A stretch of DNA of 59,235 nt, filler included, from Dirinaria sp. TL-2023a (lineage: Eukaryota): the NCBI GenBank assembly GCA_051941275.1. It is 4 parts of 4 records of this genome, joined end to end, with 100 filler letters (N's around TTAATTAATTAA, not from the genome) between each part and the next. Parts side by side here need not be neighbours in the genome. Positions count along the whole stretch, not along the records: positions 14,845 to 29,579 come from JAVEBF010000587.1; 3 more parts are not named here. One strand, written 5' to 3'. The first letter of the stretch is position 1. The number at the start of each line of letters is the position of its first letter. This document shows positions 8,356 to 39,900 of this stretch, piece after piece. Below the pieces are notes generated by a model that saw only the letters and a list, made by a program, of their open reading frames with translations, was not told the origin of the DNA and searched no databases. The position numbers and the translations under genes were made by a program.

Positions 8356-11300
8356 ATGGACTGTAATCTGGAGAGTGCTGTAGAAAAATCTGTAAGGCAC
8401 GGGGAGGACTTTTCGATGGACGAGGTCGCAGAGCAGTCTGAGCAACATATGGGAATTACCGAGGACGAAGGACCGCGCGGGCAGCATCGTGATGGACATA
8501 TTCATGTTGACGATGAAGCTAGCCGCCTTCAAGATTTGGCAGCCGATGTCAGGGACCAGGATGACTTGGAGCGTGACGTTGGTCGTCAAGTACGGCAACT
8601 CATTCTCCCCTAACTCTATGTTGCAATACGTTCAGGCTAAATTATATCCCTCAGGCCGATCAGTTACTCATCGAACAAGCCGACGAGCGTGATCAGAAGC
8701 GACTCGAAAAGGCCCAAGTAGAGAAGAGGCATGTTTCATCTGAGTGAAGTGTCACTGCGGTTTCTTGCTTACATACTACAGCAAGCTCCTAGGCCAGGTA
8801 CAGAGACTGCAACAAAAGCTGCGGCGTCCGGCAGGTTCGGCTACCACTGCCCGCACCGCGGCCGAAATAGCACAGATGGAAGCTAGGATGGACGAGCTGG
8901 GTGACGATATCAGGCAGATACAAGAGCGGATAGCTCAACGGCATTCAGATCAGCTTGAAGATGGTGGTTCACTGCTGGAAGAGTCAGGAAACCGACGACA
9001 GCCGAATGAAAGTCAGCGTGACTTTCTTCTGAGGACTGGCAAGATCACGCCATTTTCAAAAATACCTGGACGATCCATGATGCGATCAGATTCTACGTTA
9101 CAGGGGATTTTACTCGAGGCAGAGGAGGGCCAAGATGAAGAGGATGTGACCAGCGAAATAGATGACAACAAAGATGCGCTTGAAAAGCTGTCTCATCGCA
9201 ATCTAGCACAGCCTGGTTTCGCTGGGGACGATATCAGTGAAACTGCATCTCTGCCCCCTTCAGGTTCATCCGATAGGTCAGCCAAGCGACGCCGCTTGCA
9301 GTCCGAATCCAAGCAAAATCAGCTGCCCCACAGACCAAGGTACGTAACTGACGATGCTAGGGTAGGACAGGAAGATGAAGATGAGCACGAGGGGTTGTCG
9401 GCAGATGGCGACAGTGATGCCTACTCTCCGGGGTTGAGCGATAGAGAGATTGCTGCGCTGGGAGACTCCGAGCATGCGAGCGAAGATGGGGTTGAAGAGC
9501 AAAACTTGATGCCGGATACAGACCCTCAAAGAACTAAACCACGTGGGAAACGAAAAGCAGGCAGAATCTTTGAGACAGCAGGGTCGGAGAATTTGGCGCG
9601 GCTGGACGACGGTAACGAAGAGTTCTATAAGCAAAGATTAGATGATTGGGTTCGTAGACGCAGCGCTGCTAGGGAAAGAGTCTTATCTAGACAAGCAGTA
9701 AAGGCTGGCGAAGGGGGTAGCGAAACACTGGTCGAGCTTACCGCGGACGGTACTCAGGATCAGGGTGAAGCTACTACTGAAAATGAGTGGCATTTGCCAC
9801 ATCCTACGGAACCGGATACTTTCTTCGATGGCGGATATCGTGTACCGGGCGACGTGTATCCGTCCTTGTTCAATTATCAAAAGACCGGCGTGCAGTGGTT
9901 GTGGGAATTATATTCTCAGCAAGTAGGCGGGATCGTTGGAGACGAAATGGGGTTAGGAAAGACGATACAAATCATATCCTTTCTTGCGGGCTTGCATTAC
10001 AGCCGAAAACTCACTCGGCCCATCATTGTTGTTGCACCGGCCACAGTGATGAAACAATGGGTTAGCGAGTTCCACACATGGTGGCCTGCATTTCGCGTAT
10101 CCATATTGCATACCTCCGGTAGTGGCATGATTAACATCGGCCGAGAAGCAGAGAGAGAAGGGGATCTTTTGTCAATGCAACCTGGCTCTGGTCAAAAGCC
10201 GAAGACGAAGGCTCACAAAGCTGCGAAAAGGATAGTCAATCGCGTTGTTGCAGAGGGTCATGTACTTGTCACTACCTACTCTGGGCTACAGAATTATGCC
10301 GAGCTACTGGTTCCTGTCGACTGGGAGTATGCCGTGTTGGATGAAGGACATAAGATTCGAAACCCCAACGCCGCAATCACGATCTATTGCAAAGAGCTAC
10401 GGACAGCGAACCGTATTATCCTATCCGGAACACCTATGCAAAACAATCTGGAGGAGCTATGGTCTCTTTTCGATTTTGTTTTCCCAATGCGCCTTGGAAC
10501 GCTGGTCAATTTCCGTCAGCAATTTGAGATTCCCATTCGTATAGGGGGATATGCCAACGCATCGAATCTACAAGTGCAGACTGCCATGAAGTGCGCTGAG
10601 ACATTGAAAGATACTATATCGCCCTACCTTCTCCAGCGCTTCAAGGTGGATGTTGCGTCCGATTTACCTGCCAAAAGTGAAAAGGTTCTCTTTTGTAAGC
10701 TAACCAAGCTTCAAAGGGAAATCTACGAGGGATTCTTGGATTCGGACGAGTTGAAAGCGATTATGGATGGCAAGCGCCAAGTGTTATACGGCATAGACGT
10801 TCTCCGCAAGATTTGCAATCATCCGGATCTCCAGGGCCATAAGACATTATCCAAAAAACCAGGATACCATTACGGTGACGGCGGAAAATCCGGTAAGATG
10901 CAAGTCGTGAAGGAACTATTGAAGTTGTGGAAAGAGCAGGGCCATAAAACGTTGTTGTTCGCTCAGCATCGAATCATGTTGGACATTCTTGAGACATTCA
11001 TGAACACGATGACAGGCTTCAGACACTACAGGATGGACGGCAGCACACCAATTGGGAGCCGACAAGGGCTCGTTGACGGTTTCAACAAAGATCCTGACAT
11101 CCATGTGTTTCTCTTGACCACTAAAGTCGGAGGATTAGGGATAAATCTTACTGGCGCCGACCGCGTAATCATATACGACCCCGACTGGAACCCCTCTACA
11201 GACATACAGGCCCGGGAACGGGCATGGAGGCTGGGCCAGAAGCGCGAAGTCATGATATACCGGCTAATGACTGCTGGTACGATTGAGGAAAAAATCTACC

Positions 11301-12262
11301 ACCGCCAGCTCTTCAAGACATTCCTAACCAACAAAATCCTTAGGGACCCCAAACAGCGCCAAACTTTCCAAATGAAAGACCTCCACGACTTGTTCAGCCT
11401 GGGTGGGGCCGATCAGTTGACCACTGAAACCAATGGACTTTTCAGGGGCACAGAAGTCAAATTCACCAAGGACGAGCTCCCAACCGCCGTAGCACGACCC
11501 GCGGATGGAGCTCCATTGCCTACAAGAGACGATCAGGATGCCTCTTCCATACCTAAAATGGCAGGCGTCGCATCATTGGAGCGGTATCGTGGAGAGGACC
11601 CGGCGGAGGAAGAGTCTATCGATGTCCAAGGCTCGAAGTTGGAAGCCCGAGTCATGGAAGGAATCTTCGCTCGCGCCGGCGTACATTCTGCCCTTGAGCA
11701 TGATCAAATCGTCAATGGACAACGCAAGGCCGTAGCAGATCCAAGATTGGTCGAAGCTGAGGCCAAAAAAGTCGCGGCTGAGGCGGCGAAAGAGCTGAAG
11801 AAAGCTGGGGAGCTGGCAAGGAATGTGCCAGTGGGCACGCCGACATGGACGGGTCAATATGGCTTGGCTGGAAGACCGGAGCAGCAACCGATACAGCGAG
11901 GTCTTGGTCGAGGAAGAGGGGGACCTGCTTCTTCGAGCATTCTCGCCAACCTGCAAAGCAGGCAAGCTACCAGTGCAGGGTCGAATAGCTCCAGGTCTGG
12001 TCCACTAGGCGGCCGAGACTCCCGGAGCGACACAGCAACACCGCGCGGGATGGACTTCATGAAGATGATCCGCGACTACCTGGTCACGCATGGGGGCACT
12101 GTGCATACGCAGATGCTGATCGATCACTTCAATCGGTTCTGCGACAATCCCCAGAAGACGATGGAGTTCAAAGAGATGCTGAAGGAGATCGCAACTCTTG
12201 ACAAGGGCAGTCGTGGCCGCGGGAAGTGGGTGTTGAAGGAGGAGTACCGATCATCCGGATGA
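8356..12262 (+). CDS. RAD26: Snf2-family ATPase Rad26/Rhp26/CSB (transcription-coupled repair); exons 8356-8589, 8655-8728, 8782-12262 (1262 aa)
   Basis: DQDDLERDV, RDFLLRTGKITPF, DDGNE, YQKTGVQWLWEL, GDEMGLGKT, LDEGHKIRNP, SGTPMQNNL, QARERAWRLGQ, C-terminal winged helix (IRDYL..HGG..EFKEMLKEIA..WVLKEEY). Second intron is GC-AG. Confidence 0.96.
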
Positions 12263-14744: not shown

Positions 14745-14844
14745 NNNNNNNNNNNNNNNNNNNNNNNNNNNNNNNNNNNNNNNNNNNNTTAATTAATTAA
14801 NNNNNNNNNNNNNNNNNNNNNNNNNNNNNNNNNNNNNNNNNNNN
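14745..14844. other. Artificial contig linker N44-TTAATTAATTAA-N44
   Basis: 100 nt. The 12-mer puts stop codons in all six frames. Identical to the other two linkers. Confidence 0.98.
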
Positions 14845-14910
14845 CCCTTGGCCCCCTCCCCTCCCTCCTCCCATTCCGGTAACTGCAAGCTCGCTTAAAG
14901 CTGCCGTCAA

Positions 14911-14919
14911 TCACGTGAC
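14911..14919. promoter_or_regulatory. TCACGTGAC, Cbf1/bHLH-type E-box upstream of the kinesin gene
   Basis: Matches RTCACGTG and lies ~380 nt upstream of the kinesin ATG. Binding is inferred only. Confidence 0.45.
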
Positions 14920-15298
14920 CATTATCCTCCATCCTCCAACCTGCTACTCCGTACTTCACTCCCGAAAGGTGCCGATAAGTGTAACTCCCTCCTTTCGACC
15001 ACGTAAACGACCTCACTCGCTCCAACATTGTCGCATCGAGCATCGTGTCGCCCTCGAGCATGAACCGCGAGTTTCCACCGCTGGATCGCAAAGCCTGGGT
15101 GGTATCTCGGACGACATCGGCTTTTCTTTGTTTTGGCGATTAGGGGGTGCTTATCAGAACCAGCAACACCACGCCCTCGCTGCTGCTCGGATCATAAATA
15201 CCCATCCAGAAAATGCGAATGTAGCTCAAGGCACGCTTCGAGAGACTCCATCGGAACCATCCGCGTCGAGTCTCTTCGATCACATTGGCTCGCGAAAC

Positions 15299-18200
15299 AT
15301 GGCAACCTCTTCCCCACCAGTCTCTCCACCAAACCAACCACAGCGGCCTTTGAGTGGAATAAATGGCATGCAGAGAAGTTCCAGTCGGATGAGTGTCAAC
15401 AGCAGACAGGGCGGAAGTAGTAGGCTCTCAGATGATGATGCGAGAACAGCGGTCAAAGTTGGTGAGTTGAACATGTCTGGCTTCCCACTCCAAGACGAGG
15501 AACTAAAACATTCTATCAACTTAGCTGTGAGGGTGCGCCCACCTCTGAAGCCGACTGATCCGGGTTTTGATCTCATTCCTCAACGATTTCAACGATCATT
15601 ATGCCGTGCGATCTCTCCTACAAGTCTTGCGATCGATTCGCCATCAGGCCGGGAACCCTTCGTTTTTGATAGGGTTTTCGCTGAGGATGTACAGCAAGAA
15701 GGGGTTTGGGATTATATCAGCGAAAGCATTGAAGCTTTCCTTCAAGGTTACAACGTTTCCGTGCTAGCGTATGGGCAATCTGGGTCAGGCAAATCATACA
15801 CTATGGGAACATCAGGCGCAGCGGAGCAGAGTGACCCTCAGATGATGGGTACGTGGTGTTCATCTCTCGAAAAGCTTTCCTGAGGCCCTAGTCAAATCTG
15901 GGACATGAGCTAAGTTTCTCTTACAGGCGTAATCCCCAGGGCCGCGCGCGTCCTCTTTCGCAAACTCCAAGGACCGCCGTCATTACGGCGGTCCGGATCA
16001 TCTGCTTTGAAGGCGCCTACTCGATATTCTATGTACTCGCCGCAGAACTCTTCTCAGAATCTTATGGCCATGGCGAAGAAGGACGCTCAGCACGGTCCGG
16101 AGAAAGACTGGGAGATGAAAGTCTCATACGTTGAGGTGTGTATATCCGGGCAATCTTCACAACAGCCAATTTGACAAGGCGCATCAGATCTACAATGAGC
16201 AACTGCGGGATCTATTACTACCCGACACTATACCTCCCACGGAGCGAGCACCAGTGATTATCCGAGAAGACACAAAAGGTCGCATTCTCCTGACGGGCCT
16301 GCATCAAGTCAGTATCAATTCGATCGAAGATCTGCTGAATGCCTTGAATTTTGGCTCGTCGATTCGCCAGACCGATGCAACAGCTATCAATGCGAAATCT
16401 TCTCGTTCACATGCAGTGTTCAGTATCAACTTAGTCCAGCGTAGAAAGGCCCAGCCCTCAACAAAGCAGGAAAAAAGGTTCTCTGTACCTTTAGAAGCGA
16501 TGAGCGGCTTAGAGAATGCCGTCACGTTGGACAGCAAACTCCATTTTGTGGATCTAGCTGGTAGTGAACGGCTGAAAAACACCGGGGCCTCTGGCGACCG
16601 GGCTCGAGAGGGAATAGCGATCAATGCAGGCCTTGCGAGTTTGGGAAAAGTCATCTCACAGCTCTCATCTAGACAACCAGGCGCTCACGTTTCGTATCGC
16701 GATTCCAAGCTAACGCGATTACTACAAGATGCCTTGGGTGGCAATGCAATAACTTACATGATCGCTTGCGTAACGCCAGCTGAATTTCATCTGAGCGAGA
16801 CTTTGAACACGGTTCAGTACGCAAAGCGAGCGCGAGCGATCCAGATCAAACCCGAGATACAACAGATCTCCGACGAGAGTGATAAGCAAGCTGTCATCGA
16901 TAGATTACGTGCTGAGGTGCAATTTCTCCGTGACCAGATCAGTAGTACCAACCACGGCGATATGCGGAATGATGCAGCGCAAGAAAGACTGGAGCGGCAG
17001 AACGACCGGGAGATAGAGCTTCAAAACCACCTTCTTGACGTTCAAGAAAATTACACTGCTCTCAGCCAGCGCCATGCCAAGCTCATTTCTGAGATTGCGA
17101 AAGCAAGGGACGACAAAGCTAATTCAACGCCGACGCTGACAGAGGTCATTGGGGATTCGGCGGTTGAAAGGCTCAAGCGCTCCAACTCCTTTGCTGAGGC
17201 CGTAGAACAGGTTGTGCTTGAGTACGAGAAAACGATACAAAGCTTGGAATCTTCACTGTCAAAAACCAGGTCGTCGCTGGCTTCAACTGAGAGCAGTTTA
17301 CTAGAGAGAGAAAGCAAATGCGCCTACGTTGATACTCTCAACCAGCAACTACAGAATAAAATCCAAAAAATAATCGACAGAGAAGCAAACACCGAAACAT
17401 ACCTTCGTGACCTCGAAGCTCGACTTGACGGTCAAGCTACTGGAGAAGAGAAAAGTTCAGCCGTGGTGATTGAACTCAGAAAAGAGATTTCTAGGATTCG
17501 GGAAAATGAAGCAAGTTGCGAAGAATATATCTCAACTCTCGAGGAACGGTTGGCCGAAAGCGATCAGGATATGGAGCTCATGCGACGCGAAGTCGATCGT
17601 CTCGAGAACGTGGTTGAAAGGCAGCGAAGCATTGGGAAGCTGGACAACCTGCTGTACGAATTTGACCATGTCCAACAGAATGGGAAATTCCAGCATCAAA
17701 GCAAGGCCAGCAAAACAGCCGCCAATCGTATTTCTCAACAGCAACTCAACTCACAAGAGCCCAAGTACGACCTGCAGGATGCTGTCAGAACCGTGATACC
17801 TGAGTCTGACGATGAGGATCTGGAAGACGGCGATCCTTTAACTCCGCGCTACAGGGCGCTTGATGTAAGGCAAACCGACGTGGATGATGAAAAGATCAAA
17901 GCACAGGAGATCAATGGTTTCAATTCGGAGCATGGGGTTGCCACCGAAGCTCGGCCCAGCACAGCCCAGTCCCGACTAAGATCGGAGAAGCTTGACAATG
18001 TGACCCAGGAGCTCTTTGCCCTGAGATCAGAACATGAGACAACGATTACTGAATATAACTTGATGTCCGCTAAGTATGAGGAGGCATTACGAACGTTGGC
18101 CGAGCTTCAAGATGCTGCGGATGAAGCTCGTCATCCTGCTCCTCCACTGTTTGCCCCCTCACCGGCATCGACACGGCCTACTTCTTTTTTAGGGGACGCG

Positions 18201-20720
18201 AGGGTGAACGAGCTAAGACACGTAGGACAACTACCATCCTCGCGATCCTTGTCTTCGGAGTTGTCCTTAGCTGCGGAATCCAATACCTCCGTCGAACACT
18301 CTATGGACGGATCGCCACTGACGAGCAAGCCTTCAGGGACTATCGACGAAATGTCACAAGCTGAGATCCTGCTGCGACAGGAGAACGAGCACCTCAAGAA
18401 AGCTCAAGATGAGAAAGATGCGGCATTGATAGCAATCAAGGACCAATACACAGAGTTGCAGGATTTGCACGCAGAAACGCTGGATTTCATGGAGGAACTG
18501 AAAACTGAGGTAGAACGATCCAAGAGGAGTCCGACCTCACCGGCAAACCCTCTTGTTAGGAGGAAGGGTAGCCAGAATATGTTGACGCTCGATCGCGCCC
18601 ATCGAGCGCTGGCCTCTTTGAAGAACATCGCCGCAGAAAACCTTGAGGACAAACCGGACACGATGCAGAACTTTGAGCTCAACCTAAATATGACAATGCA
18701 AGAGCTCTACGAGAAAGCGGAGCGTGTACAAGTACTCGACGTTGAGCTTACCAAGGTCAAAAAGGAGATGGAGGCGAAATCGACCATGATCTCTGGTCTG
18801 GCCCGAGAACGATCAAGCTTGCAAAGCTCACCTGTCGATATTTCCGTGATGTCGTCGATCCAGCAGCAGCTGATGCAGAACGAGAACCAGGTGAAAGCGC
18901 TGCAAGAAACTCACGCTGCGCGAGAACAAGAATTGCTCAGTCAGGTCGAGTCACTCAAGCAGTTACTCGATGAGCAAGCGCAGCAAAACAAACCTGCTAT
19001 GCCAGGCTTCTTCCCTGAAACACCCGCTACCCTTGACAATGCGCAATTAGATACGAAGCAGCTTGGCCAGGCTTCAACAGCCATTGAGGTCACAAGGCTA
19101 CAAGAAGAGGTTCGAGAGTGGCAAAACAAGCACGATGCTGTGATAAACTCCATGCAAGCCTCTGAGAAGGAATTATTGTCCACAATAAGTGAGCTCGAAA
19201 CAGCCATGGCAAGTGTCGATACGCTGCGAAGCAAGAACTCCGAAATAGAGGGTGCCGCTCGATTCGCGGTGGAGAGGACTCAACTTTCGCAAGCACTTGA
19301 GTCATTGAACAAGGAACTTCAAGAGCACAAGAAAGTCATCGCGACTAATCGCGAGCAGATCGCTGATCTAGAGCGGTCGCAGGTTGCAGCTCGAGAACAG
19401 CTACAGGAAAATGCGCGCTACAGAGCCTTCGCTGAAGCTCAGATAAATTCGCACAGTGATCAAATGAAACGTCTCGAACAGACGATTCTGGAACATAAGT
19501 CTGATGTTGAATTCCACAAACATGGTCTTCGGTCTTTACACGACTCACATGCGAAAGAAGTGGAAAATGTCCGGTTCAGACTGGAGTCAGATCATGCGCA
19601 CGATAGGGCAACTCAACACGCAGAGCTTAAGCTTGAACATGAGCAGCAATATGAGCGGCAGAAAGCTGAGTTTGAAGAGGCTATGCAAGAAACCAACAGT
19701 CAACTTACAGAAGCTGTTCAGCAACGCGACCAACTTCAGCAAGAACAAAGAGCCCTAGTAGATGAGTTTCAGAGCATTAACAGGAAGCTCCTGGGGGTAG
19801 AAGACACAATTCAAACCAAAGTCAAAGAGCTTGACTCGGTCAAGAAGCGTAATAGAGAACTAACATCGGCCCTCACTGAAGCCACGTCTGCCTTGGAGGA
19901 GTTCAAGCGATCAGCTGACGAGAAGAGTGCTGAGCTCAACAAAGTTATTGCCGAAAAGAAGAAGGCGGACCGTCTTGTGGATGAGCTGGAAGATCAATTA
20001 TCGGCAACATACGATCAGCACCGTGCGGCATCCAGTAGGCTTTCTGTTCTCAGCCAGACACATGATCAAGCGCTTCAAGAAGTGACCTCCGCGAAAGCCA
20101 AACTTGAGGAGGAGCTGGAAATGTACCGCAATAAATTAAATCAAGCAGAGGTAGAAAAGCTCCCCCGCCAGCACTCATTTGATGCGCTAACTAGCGATCA
20201 GCTCGATCGTTCGAGTCTGCAGCCGTCCAGCCTGCGGAAATCAAATTCGGCCATTTCGCTTCCATCACCACCACCTACCATTCCACTCCCTCAAATCCCG
20301 ACTATTGCTTCTGCAACCACGTCACCCCAGCTTCCGAATGGTGGCCAGTCGCCGAGCCCTGATACTGTACTATCGCATCAGCATTTCGAAGCGCAAGAAG
20401 ACAGGATAAGGAGCATCGAGCGTCATTTGTTCGCCGAGAAACAGCTCACAAACACGCTTGAGGAAGCTCTCGTCGACTTGGAGAGTCAAGGCAACAAGGT
20501 GAAGATGGACATGGAAGTTTGGAAGAAGAAAGCGTGGGGCTATGAGGAGGAGCTGATCCAACTGAAGCGCGAGCGAGGCCGTATGCGGGACAGCGTTCAA
20601 GCTGTCGAGGAGGAAAGGATCGCGAGGAAAGAAGCCGAGAGGGCAAGAGAGCGACTTGAGGAGCGCATGAGAGGCATGGAGAGCAAGAAGAAGAAGAAAG
20701 GCGGTTTCAACTGTTTCTGA
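15299..20720 (+). CDS. Kinesin motor protein (kinesin-4/KIF21-like) with long coiled-coil tail; exons 15299-15461, 15525-15848, 15927-16135, 16188-20150, 20202-20720 (~1725 aa)
   Basis: VAVRVRP, FVFDRVF, GYNVSVLAYGQSGSGKSYTMG (P-loop), YVEIYNEQLRDLL, NAKSSRSHAVF, LHFVDLAGSER, HVSYRDSKLTRLLQDALGGN, ETLNTVQYA. The last intron (20151-20201) is in-frame and less certain. Confidence 0.93.
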
Positions 20721-22672: not shown

Positions 22673-25600
22673 ATGGTGTCGAAACCGCACTTAAGCCCTC
22701 TGCAAACAGAGGGTATTGCTGCCGTCAACTGCAATAGCCCCCCTAAGCCCAACATGGGGGACAGCATGCTAACCGGAGACTTGTATGAAGTTACCCCGAG
22801 TCCTGCCAGCAGCGACTCTGGAGTCTCTGTGTACTCTTTCCACTGCATCATCGATTTACGGTGCAACACGCCTCTAGCGAGTCCTATCGAACCAGAAACG
22901 ATGTCTACTGCTGCTGCAATACCAGTCCAGATGGGCTCCCCAGTCACCGACTGGGTCCAGCAGCAAGCCTGCGAGGATAACGCAGCCACTAACGAGACCC
23001 ACGCGTCAAAGGTAGAAGAGTCGATGGAGACTCCCTCGGTCGGCGATAGAACCTCCCGGAGATATGACATTACAACACTTCTTCGACTCAGATGGAAAGT
23101 GAAAATGTCTGACGTCAAGCTCCAAATCAACCCCGACGTGTTGCAAGGTACGTGAGCTTTTCGTCTAGCTGACATTCACGTCTCCTTTTGCGCGTTGCGA
23201 TGTGTATCATCGTTGTCAAGCCTCCTGTAGCTTGGTCGCAACTGCATCTCAATAGTCCGCAGGCAAAATCCAAAAGGCTAATCTTTCTTTAGAGCCAATC
23301 TTCAAGCGTACGGTGTTCTCAACTTTGCCCAAAGCATCGAAGCGCTCTCGCGGTCTTTCCGATGTTTCGCTGAATTCATTGCATTCTATTCCCTCGGAGG
23401 AAGAAGTGATCTATCGCAAGTTCCGGCCTTCTCGCCAGCCCTTCGATCCGCCACAGGCTCTCAGCGAAGCTGTCCAGCAGAACTTTGCTCCTCGACTTCC
23501 GAGGCGCCAACCGCTCCCTCCGCCTGCCACTGCCCTCGCGCAGCACCATGCTGGATTTGCTCGTTTTCTCAAGGAGCATGCGTCTCCGCCACACCAACGT
23601 GTGACCGCCGGCGGTCGCATTGTCCCAGCCAGCGGCCCCCCTCCAATCTTCAATGTAGACTCACTTCGGGCATTGGCGTCTCCTTCAGTGGCTCCGAATT
23701 CATTGGCAGCTCCTAAAGAGATCGACCCTGGTCCAGCTACTCAAGAACTTGCTACACAAAACGATATGGCCATGTCCGACGCAGTTGCACCAGCCAATCC
23801 CCAGAATACTGCTCGCGCGGTCGGTACTGCAAAACAACGCCAAACTGTCGCGGCATTTGCAGAAAACATGCGTCAGATCGGTATCCAGGAAGCCGAAAAA
23901 CAGCATATGCAGCTTGGCCCAGCAGGTACAGCTTCCACTATGAACATGTCATTCGCGCTCCCAGATGGCAGTAGAGTACTACTTCAGAATGGGTTACCAT
24001 ATAGAGTATACTGGAATGGCGTTCAGAACGTCGCCGAGCCTCTGAATGTCCAACCTGGGTTGATGCCGGGCTCGACAGCCGCCAACGTTCAAAAGGCAGG
24101 ACCGAGTGCTCAGTATAGCGTGGCCAATCCCAATGCAGCGCCCCCAACTCTTCCAATGGTGATCTCCAATCTGTCAAGCGTTCAGAATCCTCATTCAACG
24201 CATTTTGATCAAGGTGTGCCGGATCATGTGTTGCAACGTCAACACGAAAACTTGCGTTATGAGCTGAAAAAGCTTGACAAGCACATAGCCCTGCGTTCCC
24301 AAACTTTCTCATCAGCCGAACACGCCAACCACGTTGCACAGCGGAAGCATCTCGTGGAGCAGATCGACAACATACGTGTGATGCGTGGACGTCGTGAACG
24401 CACCAGCACAGACGCGACGAATGCCTTGGGTTCTTATGCAAACCTCCAGGATCCAATGTACAGTTATAAACAGATCTACCAGAACGTAATCCAGGGTCCG
24501 CATATGACAGCAAATGCAGGGCCTGGAGGATCTCATTCAGGTATGAATAACCAGATGTTAGCCATAGGCCCTCCGTGGGATGCCTTGATCAACGGTACCC
24601 CTCAAGTCGTGGCGACGACGAACCCCAACGTTCCGTCCCATCAACAGACGCCTTCCGTGAAGGTGGATTCCGCGGCCAGTAAGGTCCTATCGCCAGAGGC
24701 GCCACCTTTTGTTCCCAGCAGCATGCAGGGGAATCAGGCGCGGAAGATCGAAAACTGTCTTCCACATGATCAGCAAAAGAATGACCCGAAAACCACAAAT
24801 GGGTCTCTCTCAACAGCAGCGGCTGCTTCCAGCGATGGCAAGCCAGCTAGCAGCCACACGTACGGGAACGTAGCGAAAGCGTCCACGGGAGAGAAAGATC
24901 AGGATCGCCCTGACAAGGAAATACACTCCCATTCTCGGCTAGCAACATCCGGGTCGTGGAGTGCGATGGACGATGTAGTGCCCGTTGTCCACCAATCCGA
25001 TATCGCTTACGTGGATGACCTTGGCTTGAATCCTGTGCAGGACGCAAAGCTTTACTGCTCAACAGTAACGGAGTTCCAAGAGGTTATCCGTCGTGTACGT
25101 GAACAAGCCCGCTTATACGGTTGCGAAGGAGGTCAAAGCAAGGATCCTGAGTTCGACGCTGAGCAAGATATTCGTTGGGCTATGGCAGACTCAAGCCCTG
25201 TTCCTCTGCCGAGGAAAATGCCGGATCATATTGCGAACCCTCGCCCGTGGAACTGGAATGACAGCGCTTTTAACGTTCGTGCTGATAGATCTCACTTGAA
25301 GTTGGTCAAGAAATCAGATCTGTCGAAATCTCCAGAAAACCTCAAGGGAGCTCCATCTGCAAGCATCGAAACGAAGCCTGCTAGCGGTAATGTTGGTGCC
25401 CTGAGCGATCAAGGGTCGCTCAACCTCAGTACCGACGCTGCTCGTCGTAGCGCCAACCCAGATTCTTCCGACGACAGCGATCCGTTTGGGGACTCGAAGC
25501 AGGTTAATAGCTCGGAAGGTACACGTACCGTCTTAGGTGAGCTTCCCATCAATAGTCGGATTACTGATCCAAGCGCCGAAAGCGCGGCTACCGTACACAG

Positions 25601-27059
25601 CTCTGTTGGATCTCGCACCCCTTCTCAGAAGGAGATCTCTGATGATACGGTCACTCAGCATGCTTTCTTAGAGGTGCCCAATGCTGAGACTTCGCTTAAA
25701 GAGAAACTCTCGAAGGATCACCAGCAGGGCGCGGCCAGTGGGAAATCGACCGAACTAGGTCGTCGTCCTTACCACGCTTACGTTGAAGATGAGAAGGATT
25801 CTCCGAGTGAACCTTCGGTACCAGCAGTCATCATAACAAACACAGCGGCACAGGACAAAGAAGCTGTCAAACAGCCGGAGGCTCTCAAATACCCAATGGT
25901 GAACGGAAAGAAGAATGGTTGGGACATGACGATCGAGGAGTTAGACGCAGATATTGCAGCTAATCCTCAACCCTGGGCACTCCCCCCTCCGCCTCCTGAT
26001 TCTCCTGGATGGGAGGATTATCCGGACCCGCTTCAGATCCGAAGCAAAATGCCCTTCAAGATAGAAGATGTGCAGAGGTCAGCCGTTAGCAAACTCATAA
26101 AGTATATGCTCATATTAATGACTATTAGGGGCCTACGAGGAGATCCACCTGTCCATATGCCAAATATACATGGACCCCAAAACCCCAATGCGGGCCCAAG
26201 CAAACCACAGGTGTTAGCCGGGGGAGCCAAACCTTTTGGCTATAACGAGCATAAACCCATTAGCATCCCAAGGTAGGTTACCAAATATCGAAGCATTGCT
26301 TATCAGGCTGACACTGTGTTCAGTCGTCCGGGTGCCAGCGGCACACCATCATTCCTTCGCGATATGCTGAAGAATCCCCGATTTTCGACCACGAACCTTG
26401 GTCAGCAGCTGCCAGCAGGATCAATGGGCAGCCGGAACGCTGCATTCGCCACGTCTTCCAGACATACCACAGATAAAGAAAATTTTAACAATAATATGTT
26501 AGCCGGTAGCAGAGCCAACCAGACAAACAACCCTATAGGTTCACGTCTACCTAGCTCCAACAACTTAGCCTTTTCGACTCAAGATGCTCGCATCGGTAAA
26601 GCGCAGTCATCAATTGCCTCTTCGTCCCACTACGCCCAAGGCTATCTCCCTCAGAATCCCCGAAACGTCCAGCAGCCATTTAATCATTCCGTGCGTTGGC
26701 ACATACCCCAAGTCTACGGTCACACCCAAAACGGTTATACCCAAAACGGTTATCATATTTCCTCAGGCCCTGGGTATGGTCCTCCTTCTCGTCCTCGCTA
26801 TCCACCTCAGTACGATGGCCCGGGGGAATCTTCACCTCCAAGCAGGGCTCGCTCCGGCCACATGGTGAATGGTGTGGGACAAATGGTGAATGGTGTCAAC
26901 AAAGGGAACGGCAAAGTCACCACCCAAGACTTCGAGGTTACTGCTGCAGATGTTCCATCCTCACATGGCCGTGCTGTCGATGCCTATTTCCGCAACGTGA
27001 GCGAAGCCGACCGCAACGAGGTCAATTCTTCGGAGCAGAGGGCACCCAACGGCCTCTGA
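22673..27059 (+). CDS. Uncharacterised, largely disordered protein with candidate eIF4E-binding and PAM2 motifs; exons 22673-23147, 23293-26077, 26129-26272, 26324-27059 (~1379 aa)
   Basis: Three long same-strand ORFs are joined in frame by GT-AG introns. Higher-complexity blocks: GFARFLKEHASPPHQRVTAGGRIVP, a coiled coil (ENLRYELKKLDKHIAL) and YCSTVTEFQEVIRRVREQAR..DAEQDIRWAM..PRPWNWNDSAFN. Start codon uncertain. Confidence 0.8.
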
Positions 27060-30459: not shown

Positions 30460-33254
30460 CTATGAATTCCCGTATCTACTCCTCCTCGGCCGCCCCTGTC
30501 CGCCACCGACACCGATATCGATCCGTCTCATTTCCTCACTCAGTGCACTCATCCCCCAATCTTCCTGGCCCGTGCCTGCGCTTAATGGTACCTTCCCCGG
30601 TACGGGCGGCGGTACGCCTCCGGGCGAGCTCCTGGCGTAAGTGGGGCTGCTGCCACCGTAGCCATAATTTTCAGGCTCCCGTAGGGGATAATCGGATGCA
30701 TTGGATCTCGGCATGTTCATGCGGGCATTCGTGTTGATGGTCGGTACCGCCGGACTGGACGCCGGCTGCGCCATGGCCTGGCGAGATTTCTTCAGCAGAC
30801 GGCTTCGCGCTGCGGATGTAGGAGAGACAGGGTCGGAGGAGTGAGCGTAGGCGGGAGTCACCAGTGGATTGGGTCTTGGCGACGTCTCAGCGACAGTCCG
30901 GCGCGCAGAAGTGGGCATAGGCTGAGCACCTGCTGGACTACGCCTAAACCGGACGGTGATTTCAGGCTTTTTCTTAGGCGTCTTGGTCTCAGGTTCTGGC
31001 GCCCAAGTCTCCGCTGGTAGGTGGTCAGAGGGATCGATGACTCGGCCATCTGTACCTATGATTGGTCCCTCAGCCAGTTTAGCTTCACGTTCATGCTCGT
31101 AGAGCGCTTCCCTGGACTGTTCAGGGGTACTGTATTTGGGGCCTGAGGAATTGATATCGGAGGCTTCATTGAGAGTAGGATTGAATACATCATACGAGTC
31201 AGGTCCAAAGGGTACAACTGATTGTTGCCTTTCAGCAGATCCTGCTTCCGGCTGAGGGCTGACTGATTTGCGTGTCGGTCTCCGAGAATCTGGGCTCACT
31301 TCACGCCGAGGCACGACTGGAGCAGAAGCGCGATGAGGTCTTCTGGCATTGGCATCATCCACCGATCTATTCTGCACTTGGGCAACGTAGCGTGGGGATG
31401 GATGGGCACGGCTTTGAGTATTATGGACAGCGAATGCTTGATACTGCGGTGCAGGCTCCGAAGCTTGTCTCATGCTTGACTGGTTTTCGAACATTAACCT
31501 TTCAGACTCATCCTCTGCTATTCGCGGATCATATCCTGGTACAAGGCTTGGAGGCGTCGATTGGTTATAGTCTCGTACTGGAGAGGTAGAGAAGTGTTCT
31601 GGTGAACGCCGCCTATCCGGCTGGCTGTACGAACCATGTGGCGGTCGAGACGAGATCGCTTGAGGCCCCATACGTGCGGAAGGTGATTGGGAAGAGTGAT
31701 GGACGCCGTTGGGTGTGCTCGTTTGAACTTGAGACAATGGGCTTGCAGAGATACTGTTCCGCGCGTTGCGGATATTCAGGGGAGGAGGCCCAGAAATTGG
31801 AGGATAACTCTCTGCATGGCCACGCCCATGAAATTGTGGTGCAGATTGTAGACCATTACTTCGATGGGCAGGCGGAGGTGGTGGGCCGTCGCTTTCCACT
31901 GGAAGGTTTGAATTCGTACAAGCATTTCTACCGGCATCAAGTGATTGGTGGCGCGGGGCAAGCTGTTCGGAATTTTCGATGTTTGGAAGCGAGGTTCGAT
32001 GGTATTGCTGACTATTGCTCGAAGAATCCGGATACGCCCGGACATCAGGCATAGATGCATGTTGAGGAAGCGAGGTTGGCTTTGGTGGGGAAGAGCCGTA
32101 GAGATCTCGCCTGGCTGGCAGAGATTGTATGCTGGGACGATCCTCGTACCTTAATGGACTCTGATAATCGTCTACCGGATAACCGTAGTCTTGCGTTGAA
32201 GGAGATGGCATATCTCCATGGCTGTCGAATGGCCCGTTGCTGTATGGCGAATAACCTTGCACTTGATCTTCGACTGGGGCATAGTCATTTTGCCTATTAT
32301 CATTGACAAATTCATTTCCATCAATTCCGACTTCTTCAGCGTAATCCTTGTTGTTGAACGGTAGATATTCCGGCGTTTGGCCACGCATTCTCTCGTTTCC
32401 TGGAAAGGCCCGGCTATAGCCACGAAGGTTTGATGGCGAAGCGCGAGGATCAATCTGTTCATAATGATGGTTCAGTGGTGTGGTCGCATCCATCCTTGCA
32501 GCCGGGGATGGGGCTGGGGACTGTTGTTGCGAGTTTGGTAGATACTCATTGATTGGTGGAGGAGTGTACGGCTGAGGAGACGATCGGTTAGGGTCTGGCA
32601 TTGTCGGGTCCGCCGGCAATGGCCTTCTCTTGACGGGCTTTGGTTGTCGAGGCCCGTTCAGACCAACGCTGCCCTCTCTGTCCTGAACTGGAGTCCCATT
32701 CACTGTGCTGCTTTGCCGCCTCTCCTCAAGCCTTGGTTCCTTCGGTCGAGTGTCGTAATAGGTAAGCTCGATCCTGATCTCGCCTGCAAACCTTCCTTTA
32801 CAATTGAGCTGGTGCCAGAGGTCATTCTGTCCGCCGCCAGGTACGATGATCTTTTCCAATGCCACCCATGTCTCCCCAATCAACTCCGTCTTCCGGTCGT
32901 CGTTGAAGACGGATACTTTGAGCTGATAGTAGTCGGGCGAATCGTGCACAGTGAACCGCATCTCTTGGTCCCTATGGAAAATTAGTTTTCAATCAGCATG
33001 GTGCGGACCAGTGTATCAGACCATTTCGGAGTCTGGCCACCACGCCTGTCTGTATCCGTCTTTTTGGCTTCTTTTCCTAATCGTGCAGCACAGTACGGAT
33101 CTTGCTTGCCCATGGTTTTCCTGTTTGGCAGATTCTTTGCTCTGTCGGCGACGACGACCAATGTACCAATTTCAGGTCCATCGACAGTCATGTCGGCAAA
33201 AATCCCGGCGGTATGACCGCCCGGAATGGCAGCTTTGGCAGCTTTGGATGTCAT
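30460..33254 (-). CDS. INN1: C2-domain cytokinesis ingression protein (Inn1/Fic1 family); exons 33254-33022, 32971-30460 (914 aa)
   Basis: N-terminal C2 domain (IGTLVVVADRAKNLPNRKTMGKQDPYCAARLG..RGGQTPKW/DQEMRF..KGRFAGEIRIELTYYD), followed by a long Pro-rich tail with RRPLPADP, DHLPAETWAPEP and PPPVPGKVP (PxxP SH3 ligands). Confidence 0.85.
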
Positions 33255-36977: not shown

Positions 36978-39900
36978 CTAATCCTCATCTTCAGATGGCA
37001 ATGCTTGCGTAGCCATCATTCCACTGGTCCACATCTCGTCGTCTTGGCTGGTGCTCAAGAATCTTCTGGTAGCTGTCATCGCTGATGATGGCTCCCTCTC
37101 CTTGTAGAGCAAGGCCGCCTCGAGACCAGCAACTTCGTCTGGTGCGCCATCCTGCTCAAGCGGTTTCCAACTGTTTGCATTTGCTTCTCTTCCCTCTGGC
37201 ATCCTTGGATCTTGCCCTTCTTCGTCATTGCTCCAGAGCTCGTTTCGCCAGCAGAATTTGAGGAAAGCGAGCCAGTGTGGATCTTGGCTCAAAACCCACG
37301 GATTTCCGAGCACAATAAGGCCTTCCTTTGCTCGTGTGAGTGCCACGTTGAATTTCTTTGGTTCGTCGACGATGCCGATGCCTCTTGAAGCATCTTCTCG
37401 TAGGAACCGAGTCCGTGTGCGCGTCGTGCAGATAATCACAACGCGGCTCTCTAGGCCCTGGAAAGCTTCCATAGGCCCGATGTTCAATTCCCATAGGCTT
37501 GCCGCACGGGCAATGTTGCGGAGCCAATGCACCTGCGCATGGAAAGGCGACATGATACAGATTTCAGACTGAGATAATGCTCCGCTGAAAGACTTCAGGA
37601 GATTTGCGGCGTATCGAATGGCTCTATTGGCCTCTCGCATATTGTACCAACCCCCGCCGACAGTACGGACGTCCTCACAATCGTCGATGCCGCCATTACA
37701 GGCAAAAAGAATGGGCCACCGTCGAATAGACCAGCCGCCCCAGGCTGACAATGATTCGACATTGCTCGCTTCTGGAATAAGACTGTTGTGATAGAACAGT
37801 GAAGATGGAACAGCAAGTATTGCTGGATGAGAACGGTAATTCCGAACGAGATCTACAAACGGTGGGCGTACAGAGGGAATATACGAGTTTCGACGATTTG
37901 CCCATTTACGAGCCTTTGGATGAGAGGCATAGATTGAACGATTAGACAAGCGCTCAAAGAGTGAGACATGCAGCGCTGTGCTCCTGTCATAAGTCCTAGG
38001 TCCAAGCTGGTGTTGATCGCCCGCCATGACGAATGCTGGATTCGGATGATATGGATGCCCCGCGTGCGGCGCAATTACTGCCAATGGTATCAGAACCTCA
38101 GGCTCTGTTGCTTGAGCAGCTTCATCGACGAGTAACGCTGTCCAATGCAGAGGGATGCTTCGTTGCAGCTCTGAGCTTGGATGCAATATTCTGAGCATAT
38201 TTGTCTGCAATGACGCAAGGTCTCTGTTGGTGACGCGAGCGTTAATAAGTACATCGGCACCTCGACAAGTCGTAATGACAATCTTGTAAGACATTAGACG
38301 AGGTAGAGGAGGCAAACTGAAGATGTTGTCCTCAATGTGGCAATAAGTCAACAACTCCTCGGGGACCTCGGCAAAGGTTCTAGAGAACTCATTGAGTCGG
38401 AATATTATCTGCGGATCAAAATAGGCGCTAAGGCGTAAAGCAAGCGTATCCGCGGCAGGGTCTGAAGGCGCACAGAGCAGGATAGATCCAACGGAGTCCT
38501 TGTCATTCATCATCTTGTCCGCAAATTGCGCCGCAGTCTCCACTACCGTCTTCGTTTTCCCAGTGCCTGGTGGCCCGTTGATGAGATAGCATAAGTCACC
38601 GTAGTTCCTTGAGTGGATTGCCGTAACAGCCTTCTATGATCATTTCAGCCAAAGTCCGCTGTAAGTATTACAGCGTTACGACGCACCATTTGTTCATAGT
38701 TCAGATCTTTGTCGAACCAATTCTCTTGAAATCTTCCTTTTGGTAGCGATGTCTGCAGCACGCCGTCTGCAACCGTTGGAAATAGCATATGGTGTAGCCA
38801 ATGCTTATGATCAATCGCTTCTGGGGTGATATTGATGGGTTGAGATGTGAGTGCCGTTGCACGATCTAAACCGTCATGATGGTTGTCATCTCGTGAGATT
38901 TTGGAATCATCAGAGGAGTGCACTGGATATGAAAGTGCAGCCTGTTCACGATGAACATCTCGAAATGGGTCCGATGTAAGCTCATGAGCTATATCAGCTA
39001 TGGTGCGTTCAAGAGCATGCACCCTGCGACGTTGAACGACAAAGCTGACATTGAAGACCAACGGAATCGGTAGCACTCCAGCTAATCGCAAGTGCAACTT
39101 CTCGTATTGCTTAATTACAGCAACCACGGTGCCTGTAATCTCGGAACCCGTAAAGCCCGGTGCTGGCTCGCCTCTCATCTGTCCGCCGGACTTCTCCCAA
39201 TACTCCATACCTAAGGGTTTTTTGGTCCAAGGATCGAGAACAAGCTGGCGCAGACTCATAATATCTCCAAAGGCCACTCTTGGAGCGCTCTCACGAAGCC
39301 CTGGCACATGTAGGCTGAAGAGATGTTGTTGAAAGTCGATTATTTCCAATTCAGCGCCAAAGATGTCGTAGGACCTTACCTCGCGTAACTGTGCTTCAAG
39401 ATCAAGCATCACGCAGTCTATGAAATGGCGCTTGTAATCCTGGGGACCAAAGTTATCACTTCGCAGAAGGCCCAAACGACTGATGGTCAGACTTTGAGTG
39501 AGGGAAAACATTGGGGGAAGGAATAGTGGAGTGGCGAACGTCAAAACATATTTTGGAAAATTGATACCCTCCACTGCCTGGCTGATAACAGATCTAGCCG
39601 GCGCGTCATTAACAAGGAGATATGACCGCGGGACAAATGCTTGAGCGAAAACATCGGGCTTCCAAGCAGATATTGCCTGCTGGTCTTTCGATGGTATCAC
39701 TGAGATAGTATTTTCTTCAGGAGAACCGAGACCCGTCCCTGATCTATGGTGAGCATTGTGTCCATTCGCATTCGCAGACGCACTGAAAGGTCGCTCGTTT
39801 ATAGCTACGACACTGCGATCATGGACGTGACCTTGAATACCTTCTGGACTGCTGCGTTGTATGTTGTCGATTGGCGCACTCAGCTGAACCCGTCTAGGAT

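Follow-up and report, generated by a model that had tools for sequence, protein, structure and literature searches.

The Dirinaria sp. TL-2023a gene analyzed here encodes what we take, from sequence conservation and a structural model, to be a candidate member of a new family of eIF4E-binding proteins (4E-BPs) that also bears a PAM2 motif. The gene lies within the window, the whole stretch of 59,235 nucleotides (filler included) that was analyzed, and its features are listed in Table 1. With moderate confidence, we read the product as a long disordered scaffold that would dock both eIF4E and Pab1 and hold mRNA in a non-initiating closed loop. An initial annotation had proposed a cap/poly(A) scaffold, and as a candidate this proposal stands, given the conserved motifs, an eIF4E complex model that passed, a PF07145 match, and the lack of a MIF4G domain.

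Table 1. Features of the gene and its product, in window positions
Feature	Position	Strand	Details
Whole gene	22673..27059	+	3 exons; 1396 aa from first ATG (22673), 1369 aa from second ATG (22754)
Exon 1	22673..23147	+	Alternative start 22754; bears the eIF4E-type motif
Canonical eIF4E-binding-type motif RRYDITTLLRLR	23057..23092	+	Exon 1 frame; Y104, L109, L110 (P0004 numbering)
Second hydrophobic motif, first half (DVKLQINPDVLQ)	23111..23147	+	Consensus L-R-x-x-P-x-A-L; candidate non-canonical lateral-surface motif
Intron 1	23148..23292	+	GTACGT donor; GCTAAT branch-like site 23277-23283; TAG acceptor
Exon 2	23293..26272	+	992 whole codons (P0002)
Second hydrophobic motif, second half ((E)PIFK), after splice junction	23293..23306	+	E-N-I-F-[KQ] conserved at exon 2 start
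Block A, R-Q-P...GFARFLKEHASPPHQRVTAGGRIVPA...PP	23505..23642	+	Most invariant stretch of the family; invariant or near-invariant alignment columns
Small beta unit (NGxxYRxYWNG)	23952..24044	+	pLDDT about 91
Antiparallel helical hairpin (coiled coil)	24222..24407	+	Exon-2 product residues 310-371; pLDDT about 95
PAM2 motif SKVLSPEAPPFVPSS	24678..24722	+	Core LSPEAPPFVP 24687-24716; inside a disordered stretch
Block B, compact helical domain of ~110 aa	24972..25304	+	Two invariant Cys
Intron 2	26273..26323	+	51 nt; GTAGGT donor, GCTGAC branch, CAG acceptor; in-frame TAG inside; used in deposited model
Exon 3	26324..27059	+	C-terminal 245 aa plus stop

The gene had been described as unannotated, but NCBI already lists it as Q9191_004411 (here also P0004), a 1369-aa "MAG hypothetical protein" of Dirinaria sp. 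TL-2023a that starts at the second ATG and is 100% identical to the window gene in a protein homology search. The proposed splicing of exon 1 to exon 2 is corroborated by this deposited model, which uses the same junction (...DVLQ/EPIFK, the slash marking the join), and by a conserved motif, P-x-A-L-x-E-N-I-F, that arises across this join in the spliced gene models from many species. Reading of the intron 1 sequence revealed a second possible acceptor, in-frame, at 23262. One RNA-library run provided contigs from a relative that is 90 to 95% identical; exon 1 and intron 1 had zero RNA cover in that run, and one of the contigs retained intron 2. In exon 3, 16 of the 25 substitutions in the relative's contigs fell at third codon positions and the indels measured 3 and 15 nt (our own count), and alignment identified C-terminal motifs common to the homologues. 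The neighboring genes encode eIF3c, an SNF2 helicase, a kinesin, a Upf1-like helicase, LETM1, and a PX-Vps5 protein; in a eukaryote, such neighbors carry no functional signal to lean on.

The sequence RRYDITTLLRLR is encoded in exon 1 where an eIF4E-binding motif had been placed, and it contains a canonical YxxxxL-phi match, YDITTLL (23063-23083). Y104 and L109 are invariant in all 40 aligned members that bear the N-terminus, from both classes, and I106 is kept in 90% or more of them; over a longer stretch the pattern reads [RK][RKV]-Y-[DSE]-I-x-T-L-L-x-[LIM]-[GRS]. Motif position was counted in the 95 members that have 125 aa or more N-terminal to block A. Sixty-four of these carried the motif 70 to 160 aa upstream of block A, so that it behaves as a conserved island; the remaining 31 seem to be gene models whose start lies within intron 1 or that run on through it, and five of them bear the motif further upstream. 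Beyond the search pattern, +2 is fixed as Ile (81/85), +4 as Thr (71/85), and +8 as Leu, Ile, or Met (82/85). In some predicted proteins the motif opens the sequence (MRYDIPTLL, MKYDIQTLL). The N-terminal motif is more widespread than PAM2 and is kept in Onygenales and Eurotiales members in which PAM2 is degenerate.

A second conserved hydrophobic motif lies 12 to 20 residues downstream of the first in the alignment. Binders of eIF4E follow a rule of one canonical plus one non-canonical motif (PMC6061780, excerpt; PMC7139794), and the arrangement seen in these sequences would fit that rule; for the non-canonical lateral motifs themselves no sequence rule exists (PMC7139794). The near-invariant +2 Ile and +4 Thr are stricter than known 4E-binding motifs require, and another partner could impose them.

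We modeled the complex with ESMFold2, using residues 50 to 272 of eIF4E from Gyalolechia sp. and residues 88 to 150 of P0004; the supplied alignments were unused. This eIF4E comes from another lichen genus, and no Dirinaria eIF4E was among the 120 matches listed; it was retrieved through a degenerate pattern scan of metagenome contigs, which led to fungal eIF4E exons and from these to full-length lichen eIF4E proteins. The complex scored 0.80 (median of three runs) versus 0.54 for the best of three controls, an unrelated peptide, in agreement with the suggested eIF4E docking. The pass mark used is attained by 51 of 78 solved complexes and by 2 of 108 mismatched pairs. The runs shared at least 74% of their contacts, with partner pLDDT of at least 57. 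In the model, partner residues R102-I106, L109, L110, L112, and R113 contact eIF4E 68-71 (HPL), 102-108, and 164-173, placing the canonical motif on the HPL motif and the V102/W106 helix, and partner residues 116-137 contact lateral residues 78, 80, 94-99, and 110-113 of eIF4E. The N-terminal region is thus predicted to make dorsal plus lateral contacts on eIF4E in canonical geometry, and this prediction passed its controls; the pass may reflect likeness to the many solved eIF4E-peptide complexes rather than binding.

The PAM2-like motif, SKVLSPEAPPFVPSS, was likewise encoded where it had been reported. The PAM2 consensus is LNxxAxEFxP (PMC7356810, excerpt), and the anchors Leu, Ala, Phe, and Pro of L-S-P-E-A-P-P-F-V-P have the same spacing; the consensus turn Asn is Ser in the Lecanoromycete motif. 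The window segment cleared the PF07145 cutoff of 20 bits marginally (20.5 bits, E = 3.5e-4), and the whole 992-aa exon product gave no match to that family. Among 25 homologue segments, 17 matched PF07145 at E ≤ 1 and just 2 at the cutoff, with three F-type and all five W-type segments unmatched. PAM2 was also a conserved island: it was present in 82 of 84 close homologues, in which LS[PA]xAxxF[IV]P is nearly invariant amid otherwise unalignable sequence, and a pattern permitting F or W found it in 216 of 313 members. In the Eurotiomycete branch, PAM2 is a Trp variant or degenerate; the homologous LNxxAxxWxP form, at the same place, corresponds to the known PAM2w type, as in LARP4/4B (PMC7356810, excerpt). 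With PAM2 degenerate in most members from the Onygenales and Eurotiales, dual binding cannot be a mode common to the whole family. Searches of the PDB by sequence left both the N-terminal and PAM2 segments unmatched.

The caution that such motifs can arise by chance was warranted. Among 20,000 shuffled versions of the protein, 32% contained YxxxxL-phi, 2.7% a PAM2 pattern, and 0.9% the two together, and YxxxxL-phi is present in about 15% of yeast proteins (PMC7139794). Because both patterns arise in shuffles, the observation of the two in a single sequence is weak, and the weight rests on conservation. Judged by the alignments, two independent mRNA-end motifs are kept together in Lecanoromycete proteins.

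Much of the remaining protein is disordered, as first described, with pLDDT below 50 for 672 of the 992 exon-2 residues in the structure model. It is rich in S (144), P (131), and A (131) rather than mainly in Q and N, which the initial annotation had named together with P and S. Pfam searches with whole exon products returned zero families at E ≤ 1 on any exon, MIF4G included, as the initial annotation had noted, and segments covering the N-terminal motif, block A, and block B matched no Pfam family. We ruled out an eIF4G identity on the absence of the MIF4G (HEAT-1) domain by Pfam; no PDB relative was found by profile.

Two compact blocks and a coiled coil had been pointed out, and each has a counterpart in our analysis. 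The first block (23544-23627) falls within GFARFLKEHASPPHQRVTAGGRIVP, the most conserved block of the family (block A), which has neither a Pfam nor a PDB match. The coiled coil was modeled as the helical hairpin, and fold searches with the whole exon-2 model gave generic helical-hairpin matches only (residues 303-379). The second block (25053-25274) lies within the confidently modeled helical domain, block B, which reached pLDDT 86.3 and pTM 0.78 when modeled alone. The best comparisons of this model with solved folds were a Foldseek E of 2.2 and a VIA Z of 3.8 over 78 residues (rmsd 4.6); a solved-fold match is absent, which does not by itself prove a new fold. Searches of the PDB by family profile gave no match for profile A1 and weak coiled-coil-type rows only for profile A3 (best E 0.16).

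The family comprised 84 close homologues and 552 cluster representatives at E ≤ 1e-3. Mean column identity across the family alignments was just 16 to 20%, with sharp conserved islands, and the family-wide core consists of the N-terminal motif, block A, and the helical hairpin. Every named member is "hypothetical" and belongs to the Lecanoromycetes or Eurotiomycetes, including lichen fungi, Aspergillus, dimorphic Onygenales, and dermatophytes. The attribution to Pezizomycotina therefore holds for these two classes and not as a spread over all Pezizomycotina, no other class being found among named members. In the ESM Atlas, exon 2 matched unnamed Ascomycota clusters only, and block B had no usable named match. 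Literature searches found no paper describing this protein family, in keeping with the earlier remark that no named protein of this architecture is known.

The N-terminal arrangement of a YxxxxL-phi helix, a flexible linker, and then a second, candidate lateral-surface motif resembles that of p20/Caf20, a 4E-BP of Saccharomyces cerevisiae. The p20 motif, which we take to be YTIDELFQLK, has the +2 Ile and +8 Leu in common with the Dirinaria family consensus. In p20, the canonical helix lies at the N-terminus or close to it and has a basic residue at +9; a flexible linker and the lateral motif come next (PMC6061780, excerpt). Unlike p20, which is small and acidic, the Dirinaria protein has about 1370 to 1400 aa, with PAM2, block A, the helical hairpin, and the orphan domain. 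A review comparing yeast subphyla, with Pezizomycotina outside its analysis, calls p20 and Eap1 Saccharomycotina-only (PMC7139794). Neither the N-terminal segment nor the family profile across that region matched a PDB chain at E ≤ 10, in a searched set that may lack p20 and Eap1p chains. The metazoan 4E-T and Cup are long, largely disordered 4E-BPs that combine canonical and non-canonical motifs and serve as scaffolds. To our knowledge, no PAM2 has been described in Eap1, 4E-T, or Cup, and we detected no homology to any of the three. Eap1 is also a long, disordered 4E-BP with canonical plus non-canonical motifs and a scaffold for partners (PMC6061780, excerpt; PMC7139794). The Dirinaria protein is like Eap1 and 4E-T/Cup in being long and largely disordered with putatively paired motifs; unlike Eap1, in which an FWRL motif is conserved (PMC6061780, excerpt), it has no FWRL after the second motif and reads EPIFKRTVF.

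With the PAM2 proteins PAIP2, ataxin-2/Pbp1, eRF3, Tob, and LARP4/4B, the Dirinaria protein shares the Leu...Ala..Phe.Pro spacing and a disordered setting, and its relatives carry the Trp variant; it differs from them in having Ser for Asn at the turn and marginal Pfam scores. We know of none among these proteins with an eIF4E-binding motif as well, and our literature searches found no PAM2 protein that also bears one. For its contact with eIF4E, eIF4G uses YxxxxL-phi together with a lateral motif; it also binds PABP, joining both mRNA ends (PMC7139794; PMC6061780, excerpt). Unlike eIF4G, the Dirinaria protein lacks MIF4G/HEAT, and its PABP contact would be via PAM2-MLLE; because MIF4G/HEAT is absent, the predicted outcome is opposite to that of eIF4G, a loop unable to recruit eIF4A or eIF3. 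PAM2 wires the cap-binding machinery to PABP in Leishmania eIF4E4-PABP1 (PMC6379680, excerpt) and mRNP scaffolds to PABP in Ustilago Upa1/Upa2 (10.1101/455378, excerpt). As these excerpts describe them, the Leishmania PAM2 sits on eIF4E itself, unlike that of the Dirinaria protein, and Upa2 is a basidiomycete multi-PAM2 endosomal transport protein. A Upa2-like identity, compared by description in that excerpt, was set aside; the Dirinaria protein has a single PAM2, and homology was not evident.

Other readings of the gene share parts of this evidence. The protein might bind eIF4E only, as a p20/Eap1-like modulator that regulates purely by competition with eIF4G, the PAM2-like stretch being a lineage-specific proline-rich element of other function. 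The family-wide core, which consists of the N-terminal motif, block A, and hairpin, fits this account, as do the two of 25 homologue segments at the Pfam cutoff and the Ser for Asn in the Lecanoromycete motif. We nevertheless judge it decidedly improbable, given the near invariance of LS[PA]xAxxF[IV]P in close homologues with unalignable flanks and the PAM2w-type form at the same place in other members (PMC7356810, excerpt). It is unlikely, to a lesser degree, that the protein is a Pab1-associated factor only, with a functional PAM2 (as in ataxin-2/Pbp1, PAIP2, Tob, or Upa-type proteins) and an N-terminal helix that serves another partner or an intramolecular role; such a factor would act on poly(A)/Pab1 biology (deadenylation, granules, transport) and not on the cap. 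The N-terminal motif is more widely kept than PAM2, including where PAM2 has degenerated, and the eIF4E model passed its mark with canonical geometry, even though the PAM2 pattern is the rarer by chance (2.7 versus 32% of shuffles) and has Pfam support, an unrelated control peptide docked on eIF4E at 0.54, and the strict +2 Ile and +4 Thr lie outside known 4E-binding rules.

Helical leucine-rich motifs of Dcp2 bind LSm-type decay factors (Edc3, Scd6, Pat1). Both resemblances could be coincidental in a scaffold of an unrelated process, for example one whose Leu-rich helix docks on such a factor, or one that acts in a non-mRNA pathway via block A and the orphan domain. It is easy to read too much into short motifs, and neither the most invariant element (block A) nor the only compact domain (block B) could be tied to a known partner or fold; against this, the joint conservation of both motifs in Lecanoromycete proteins, their joint shuffle frequency of 0.9%, and the passing eIF4E model make coincidence improbable. 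We give very little credence to a gene-model artifact in which exon 1, with its eIF4E-type motif, is not part of the protein. Intron 1 had no RNA cover and intron 2 was retained in one contig of the relative's library, and the N-terminus is missing in many database homologues, but the latter are mostly single-ORF calls that open inside intron-derived sequence. In spliced models made independently for many species, the motif stands about 100 to 110 aa ahead of block A, and a conserved motif arises at the splice junction itself.

In the scaffold reading that we prefer, with docking of both eIF4E and Pab1, the N-terminal helix motif Y-D-I-x-T-L-L-x-L-[R/G] and the hydrophobic motif 12 to 20 residues further on would bind eIF4E in competition with eIF4G, and the central PAM2 (LSPEAPPFVP) would bind the MLLE domain of Pab1. 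Without MIF4G, eIF4A and eIF3 would not be recruited, and the mRNA would be held at both ends in a non-initiating loop, leading to its repression, storage, or altered stability. The helical hairpin may dimerize the scaffold, and block A and the orphan helical domain may engage further partners. More tentatively, the protein would be a previously unrecognized 4E-BP of filamentous ascomycetes whose Lecanoromycete form builds an eIF4G-free closed loop (cap-eIF4E-scaffold-Pab1-poly(A)) that parks mRNAs in a protected, non-translating state, for example in desiccation or dormancy, with block A and the orphan domain recruiting more machinery.

Our literature searches found no described 4E-BP of filamentous ascomycetes, and we know of no earlier single protein that has both docking motifs and lacks MIF4G; if the reading is correct, the Dirinaria-type protein would be the first. 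A p20-like eIF4E-binding region and a PAM2 in one family would then offer a testable handle on cap-dependent translational control in a clade with lichen fungi, Aspergillus, and several human-pathogenic Onygenales among its members. The invariant 25-residue block and the confidently modeled domain without a solved-fold match are new objects of study.

The two short motifs at the center of the initial annotation lie where it placed them, with RRYDITTLLRLR (eIF4E-type, YxxxxL-phi) at 23057-23092 in exon 1 and SKVLSPEAPPFVPSS (PAM2, a pattern for docking on the MLLE domain of Pab1) at 24678-24722 in exon 2. Neither motif carries much weight against chance: shuffling the protein 20,000 times produced YxxxxL-phi in 32% of cases, a PAM2 pattern in 2.7%, and the two together in 0.9%. 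A review puts the share of yeast proteins with YxxxxL-phi at about 15% (PMC7139794).

A first search returned 84 homologues. Against 1.84 billion representatives, a profile matched 552 at E<=1e-3, of which 146 passed E<=1e-30, and a profile of the distant branch added 129 further matches. Names, where members had one, were "hypothetical", "uncharacterized", or evident mislabels. Named organisms were all Lecanoromycetes (Dirinaria, Heterodermia, Pseudocyphellaria, Lobaria, Xylographa, Lambiella, Wetmoreana, Gyalolechia, Caloplaca, and Ikaeria) or Eurotiomycetes (Aspergillus, including A. fumigatus and A. terreus, Thermoascus, Rasamsonia, Paecilomyces, Talaromyces, Ascosphaera, Coccidioides, Blastomyces, Histoplasma, Emergomyces, Trichophyton, Arthroderma, Fonsecaea, Exophiala, and Cirrosporium). 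No Sordariomycete, Dothideomycete, or Leotiomycete was among the named members, which make up a minority of the matches. Two homologues from the distant-branch search have names that look like annotation artefacts: an Aspergillus oryzae member (P0426, 1376 aa) joined to a histidine acid phosphatase, and a Trichophyton member (P0419) called 'Protein kinase subdomain-containing protein' with no Pfam domain recorded.

The eIF4E-type motif proved to be a conserved island in orthologues. Across 40 aligned members retaining an N-terminus and drawn from both classes, mean column identity was 17%, Tyr104 and Leu109 (numbering of the deposited protein) were invariant, and Ile106 was conserved in at least 90%. 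Block A was present in 313 stored members, and 95 of these had at least 125 residues before it. Y-x4-L-phi was found 70-160 residues upstream of block A in 64 of the 95. Most of the 31 lacking it there were either models that read through the intron or single-ORF calls in which intron sequence is translated up to the conserved exon-2 start E-Q/N-I-F-K; in five (P0008-P0010, P0019, and P0042) the motif lies further upstream. Residues beyond the search pattern were also fixed, namely Ile at +2 (81/85), Thr at +4 (71/85), and Leu, Ile, or Met at +8 (82/85). Position +9 was Gly (43), Arg (22), Ser (13), or Lys (4), and positions -1 and -2 were mainly Arg or Lys. Several Eurotiomycete models start right at the motif (MRYDIPTLL, MKYDIQTLL).

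Lying 12-20 residues downstream is a second hydrophobic motif, also conserved, that spans the exon 1-2 junction and reads phi-x-L-R-phi-x-P-x-A-L-x-E-N-I-F in Lecanoromycetes and K/R-F-S-x-x-A-L-x-x-N-L-L in Eurotiomycetes. The family's layout matches the bipartite mode of eIF4E binding described for Chaetomium eIF4G and for yeast p20 and Eap1p, in which a canonical helix with a basic residue at +9 is joined by a flexible linker to another motif on the lateral surface (PMC6061780); the downstream motif here is a candidate for that lateral role. About 11 residues ahead of the motif Tyr is a Thr-Pro site, METPSVG (23030-23056), which was not conserved in the homologue alignment covering the second motif. 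Proline-directed phosphosites adjoin the motif of 4E-BP1, and the METPSVG site resembles these.

Metagenome contigs were scanned with a degenerate pattern for the eIF4E motif W-E-D..N..G-G.W, and one Pezizomycotina-type eIF4E exon was used as query for full-length lichen eIF4E proteins. The proteins retrieved closely resembled each other, and the 120 matches listed included none from Dirinaria. Residues 50-272 of the Gyalolechia sp. 1 TL-2023 eIF4E (P0370) were modeled with residues 88-150 of the deposited protein in ESMFold2, alignments not being used. Three runs scored 0.78, 0.81, and 0.80 vs 0.00, 0.54, and 0.00 for three controls, the 0.54 coming from an unrelated control on eIF4E. The runs agreed in at least 74% of contacts, with partner pLDDT of at least 57. 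Of 78 solved complexes, 51 reached the pass mark, as did 2 of 108 mismatched pairs. Since many eIF4E-peptide complexes have been solved, the pass here denotes likeness to them and may stem from the model's memory of them. Partner residues R102-I106, L109, L110, L112, and R113 packed against eIF4E 68-71 (H-P-L), 102-108 (V..W helix), and 164-173, and partner residues 116-137 against eIF4E 78, 80, 94-99, and 110-113, read as the lateral surface. As modeled, the interface is the textbook eIF4E one, and the model supports, rather than shows, eIF4E binding. The deposited model of the Letrouitia transgressa eIF4E (P0369), left out of the complex model, lacks the VEEFWG segment holding the dorsal-surface Trp; an exon was probably mis-spliced or missed.

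For PAM2, a 41-residue segment around the motif scored 20.5 bits against Pfam PF07145 (cut-off 20, E 3.5e-4); the whole 992-residue exon-2 product gave no PAM2 match. The motif lies in a disordered stretch of the AlphaFold2 model. Spacing of Leu, Ala, Phe, and Pro is the same as in the LNxxAxEFxP consensus, with Ser for the turn-stabilising Asn; in that consensus, Leu and Phe/Trp occupy two MLLE pockets and Ala faces the domain (PMC7356810). The pattern [LFMIV]xxxAxxFxP occurred in 82 of 84 first-round homologues (not in P0085 and P0086), nearly always as LS[PA]xA[PA]xF[IV]P. In the alignment the motif stands out as a sharp island. In most Onygenales and Eurotiales members just a degenerate remnant is left. 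Some distant members have an LNVQAPAWTP-type sequence at the homologous place, a Trp form known from LARP4/4B. An F-or-W pattern was found in 216 of 313 members. When 25 homologue segments were run against PF07145, 17 matched at E<=1 (14-22 bits), two reached 20 bits, and no match came from three F-type segments or from any of the five W-type ones, so that Pfam support for the putative PAM2 across the family is marginal.

Whole exon products each lacked any Pfam family match, hence no MIF4G domain, as initially noted. Predominant disorder was borne out when the exon-2 product was modeled in AlphaFold2 (alignment of 54 sequences), with pLDDT < 50 in 672 of 992 residues and three confident elements. 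The two compact blocks seen in the initial annotation correspond to block A (GFARFLKEHASPPHQRVTAGGRIVP) and the helical domain, block B. No element is more invariant across the two classes than block A, which outranks either named motif in strictness (invariant residues in 40 sequences: G, F, R, F, L, S, P, R, V, T, A, G, G, R, I, V, P). It had no match in Pfam or PDB and is probably a docking site for a highly conserved partner. Block B modeled alone (53 sequences) reached pLDDT 86.3 and pTM 0.78. Neither Foldseek (best E 2.2) nor exhaustive alignment with 48,161 chains (best Z 3.8, rmsd 4.6 over 78 residues) gave a convincing match, and pattern matching did not find block B in the Eurotiomycete branch.

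Features of the studied gene, its product, and neighboring genes
Feature	Position	Strand	Details
Three-exon gene, single	22673-27059	+	
Exon 1	22673 (ATG; or ATG 22754) to 23147	+	
Intron 1	23148-23292	+	GTACGT donor, GCTAAT branch-like site, TAG acceptor
Exon 2	23293-26272	+	
Intron 2	26273-26323	+	51 nt; in-frame TAG inside splits long open frame
Exon 3	26324-27059	+	
Block A	23505-23642		R-Q-P...GFARFLKEHASPPHQRVTAGGRIVPA...PP
Block B	24972-25304		Helical domain of ~110 residues, two invariant Cys
Small beta unit	exon-2 product residues 220-250		AlphaFold2
Helical hairpin	exon-2 product residues 310-371		AlphaFold2
Helical domain (block B)	exon-2 product residues 560-665		AlphaFold2
eIF3 subunit c (eIF3c/Nip1), split-exon	481-2912	-	Two ORF pieces, eIF-3c_N and PCI domains
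SNF2-family helicase	8744-12262		
Kinesin	14801-20720		Split over two ORFs
Upf1/Sen1-like helicase	36978-40294		AAA_11/AAA_12
LETM1-like protein	44811-46505		
PX-Vps5 sorting nexin	57726-58895		

The protein is best read as a disordered scaffold with an N-terminus that would bind eIF4E in the manner of a 4E-BP and a PAM2 that, in Lecanoromycetes including this protein, would also bind Pab1. As it has no MIF4G, its predicted effect is competition with eIF4G, with mRNAs kept closed and non-initiating. Predicted Pab1 binding is likely, predicted eIF4E binding reasonably probable, and the combined scaffold has about an even chance of being correct. Among less probable rivals, a Pab1-only factor would leave the exon 1 motif, common in shuffles and invariant at Tyr and Leu, without a role in eIF4E binding; an eIF4E-only binder would do the same for Pab1 binding by PAM2, a motif sharp in near homologues and degenerate in most Onygenales and Eurotiales members. 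A scaffold in an unrelated process would use neither; the strictness of block A speaks for it and the modeled eIF4E interface against it. For the combined scaffold, the outcome may instead be stimulatory or stabilising, by analogy with the debate on p20 (PMC7139794). The literature searched contained no paper describing this family and no 4E-BP described for filamentous ascomycetes; a review that limits p20 and Eap1 to Saccharomycotina left Pezizomycotina out of its analysis (PMC7139794). Sequence and modeling point to a candidate new, unrelated 4E-BP-type family, also with PAM2, an invariant block, and an orphan domain.

The remaining rival is a wrong gene model. Searching databases with the exon-2 product brought up a deposited 1369-aa record (Q9191_004411) at 100% identity, from the lichen-forming fungus Dirinaria sp. 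TL-2023a, so the gene, initially called unannotated, was already annotated, though only as hypothetical. The record has exactly the same exon junctions and starts at the second ATG; the first ATG gives 1396 aa. Intron 1 has an alternative in-frame acceptor at 23262, and the exon 1-2 junction, with its acceptor at 23292, is supported because the conserved second motif spans it. RNA evidence, covering sequence outside exon 1 and intron 1, came from a single lichen-metagenome RNA-library run, in which three contigs were 90-95% identical to the gene and therefore from a relative. One contig, at 26258-26463, crosses intron 2 unjoined, a weak point against splicing that could reflect intron retention, pre-mRNA or other unspliced RNA, or DNA carry-over in the library. 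Of 25 substitutions listed in exon 3 against the relative, 16 fell at third, six at first, and three at second codon positions; the two indels were of 3 and 15 nt, and C-terminal motifs are common to the protein and its homologues. By this comparison exon 3 is under coding constraint in its assigned frame, and intron 2, with a stop inside, must therefore be removed.

Large ORFs at 30460-32988, 42430-43908, 48055-49563, and 50116-52377 had no Pfam match. The eIF3c/Nip1 gene lies ~20 kb upstream of the studied gene, and the nearness of this translation-related gene was treated as coincidence.
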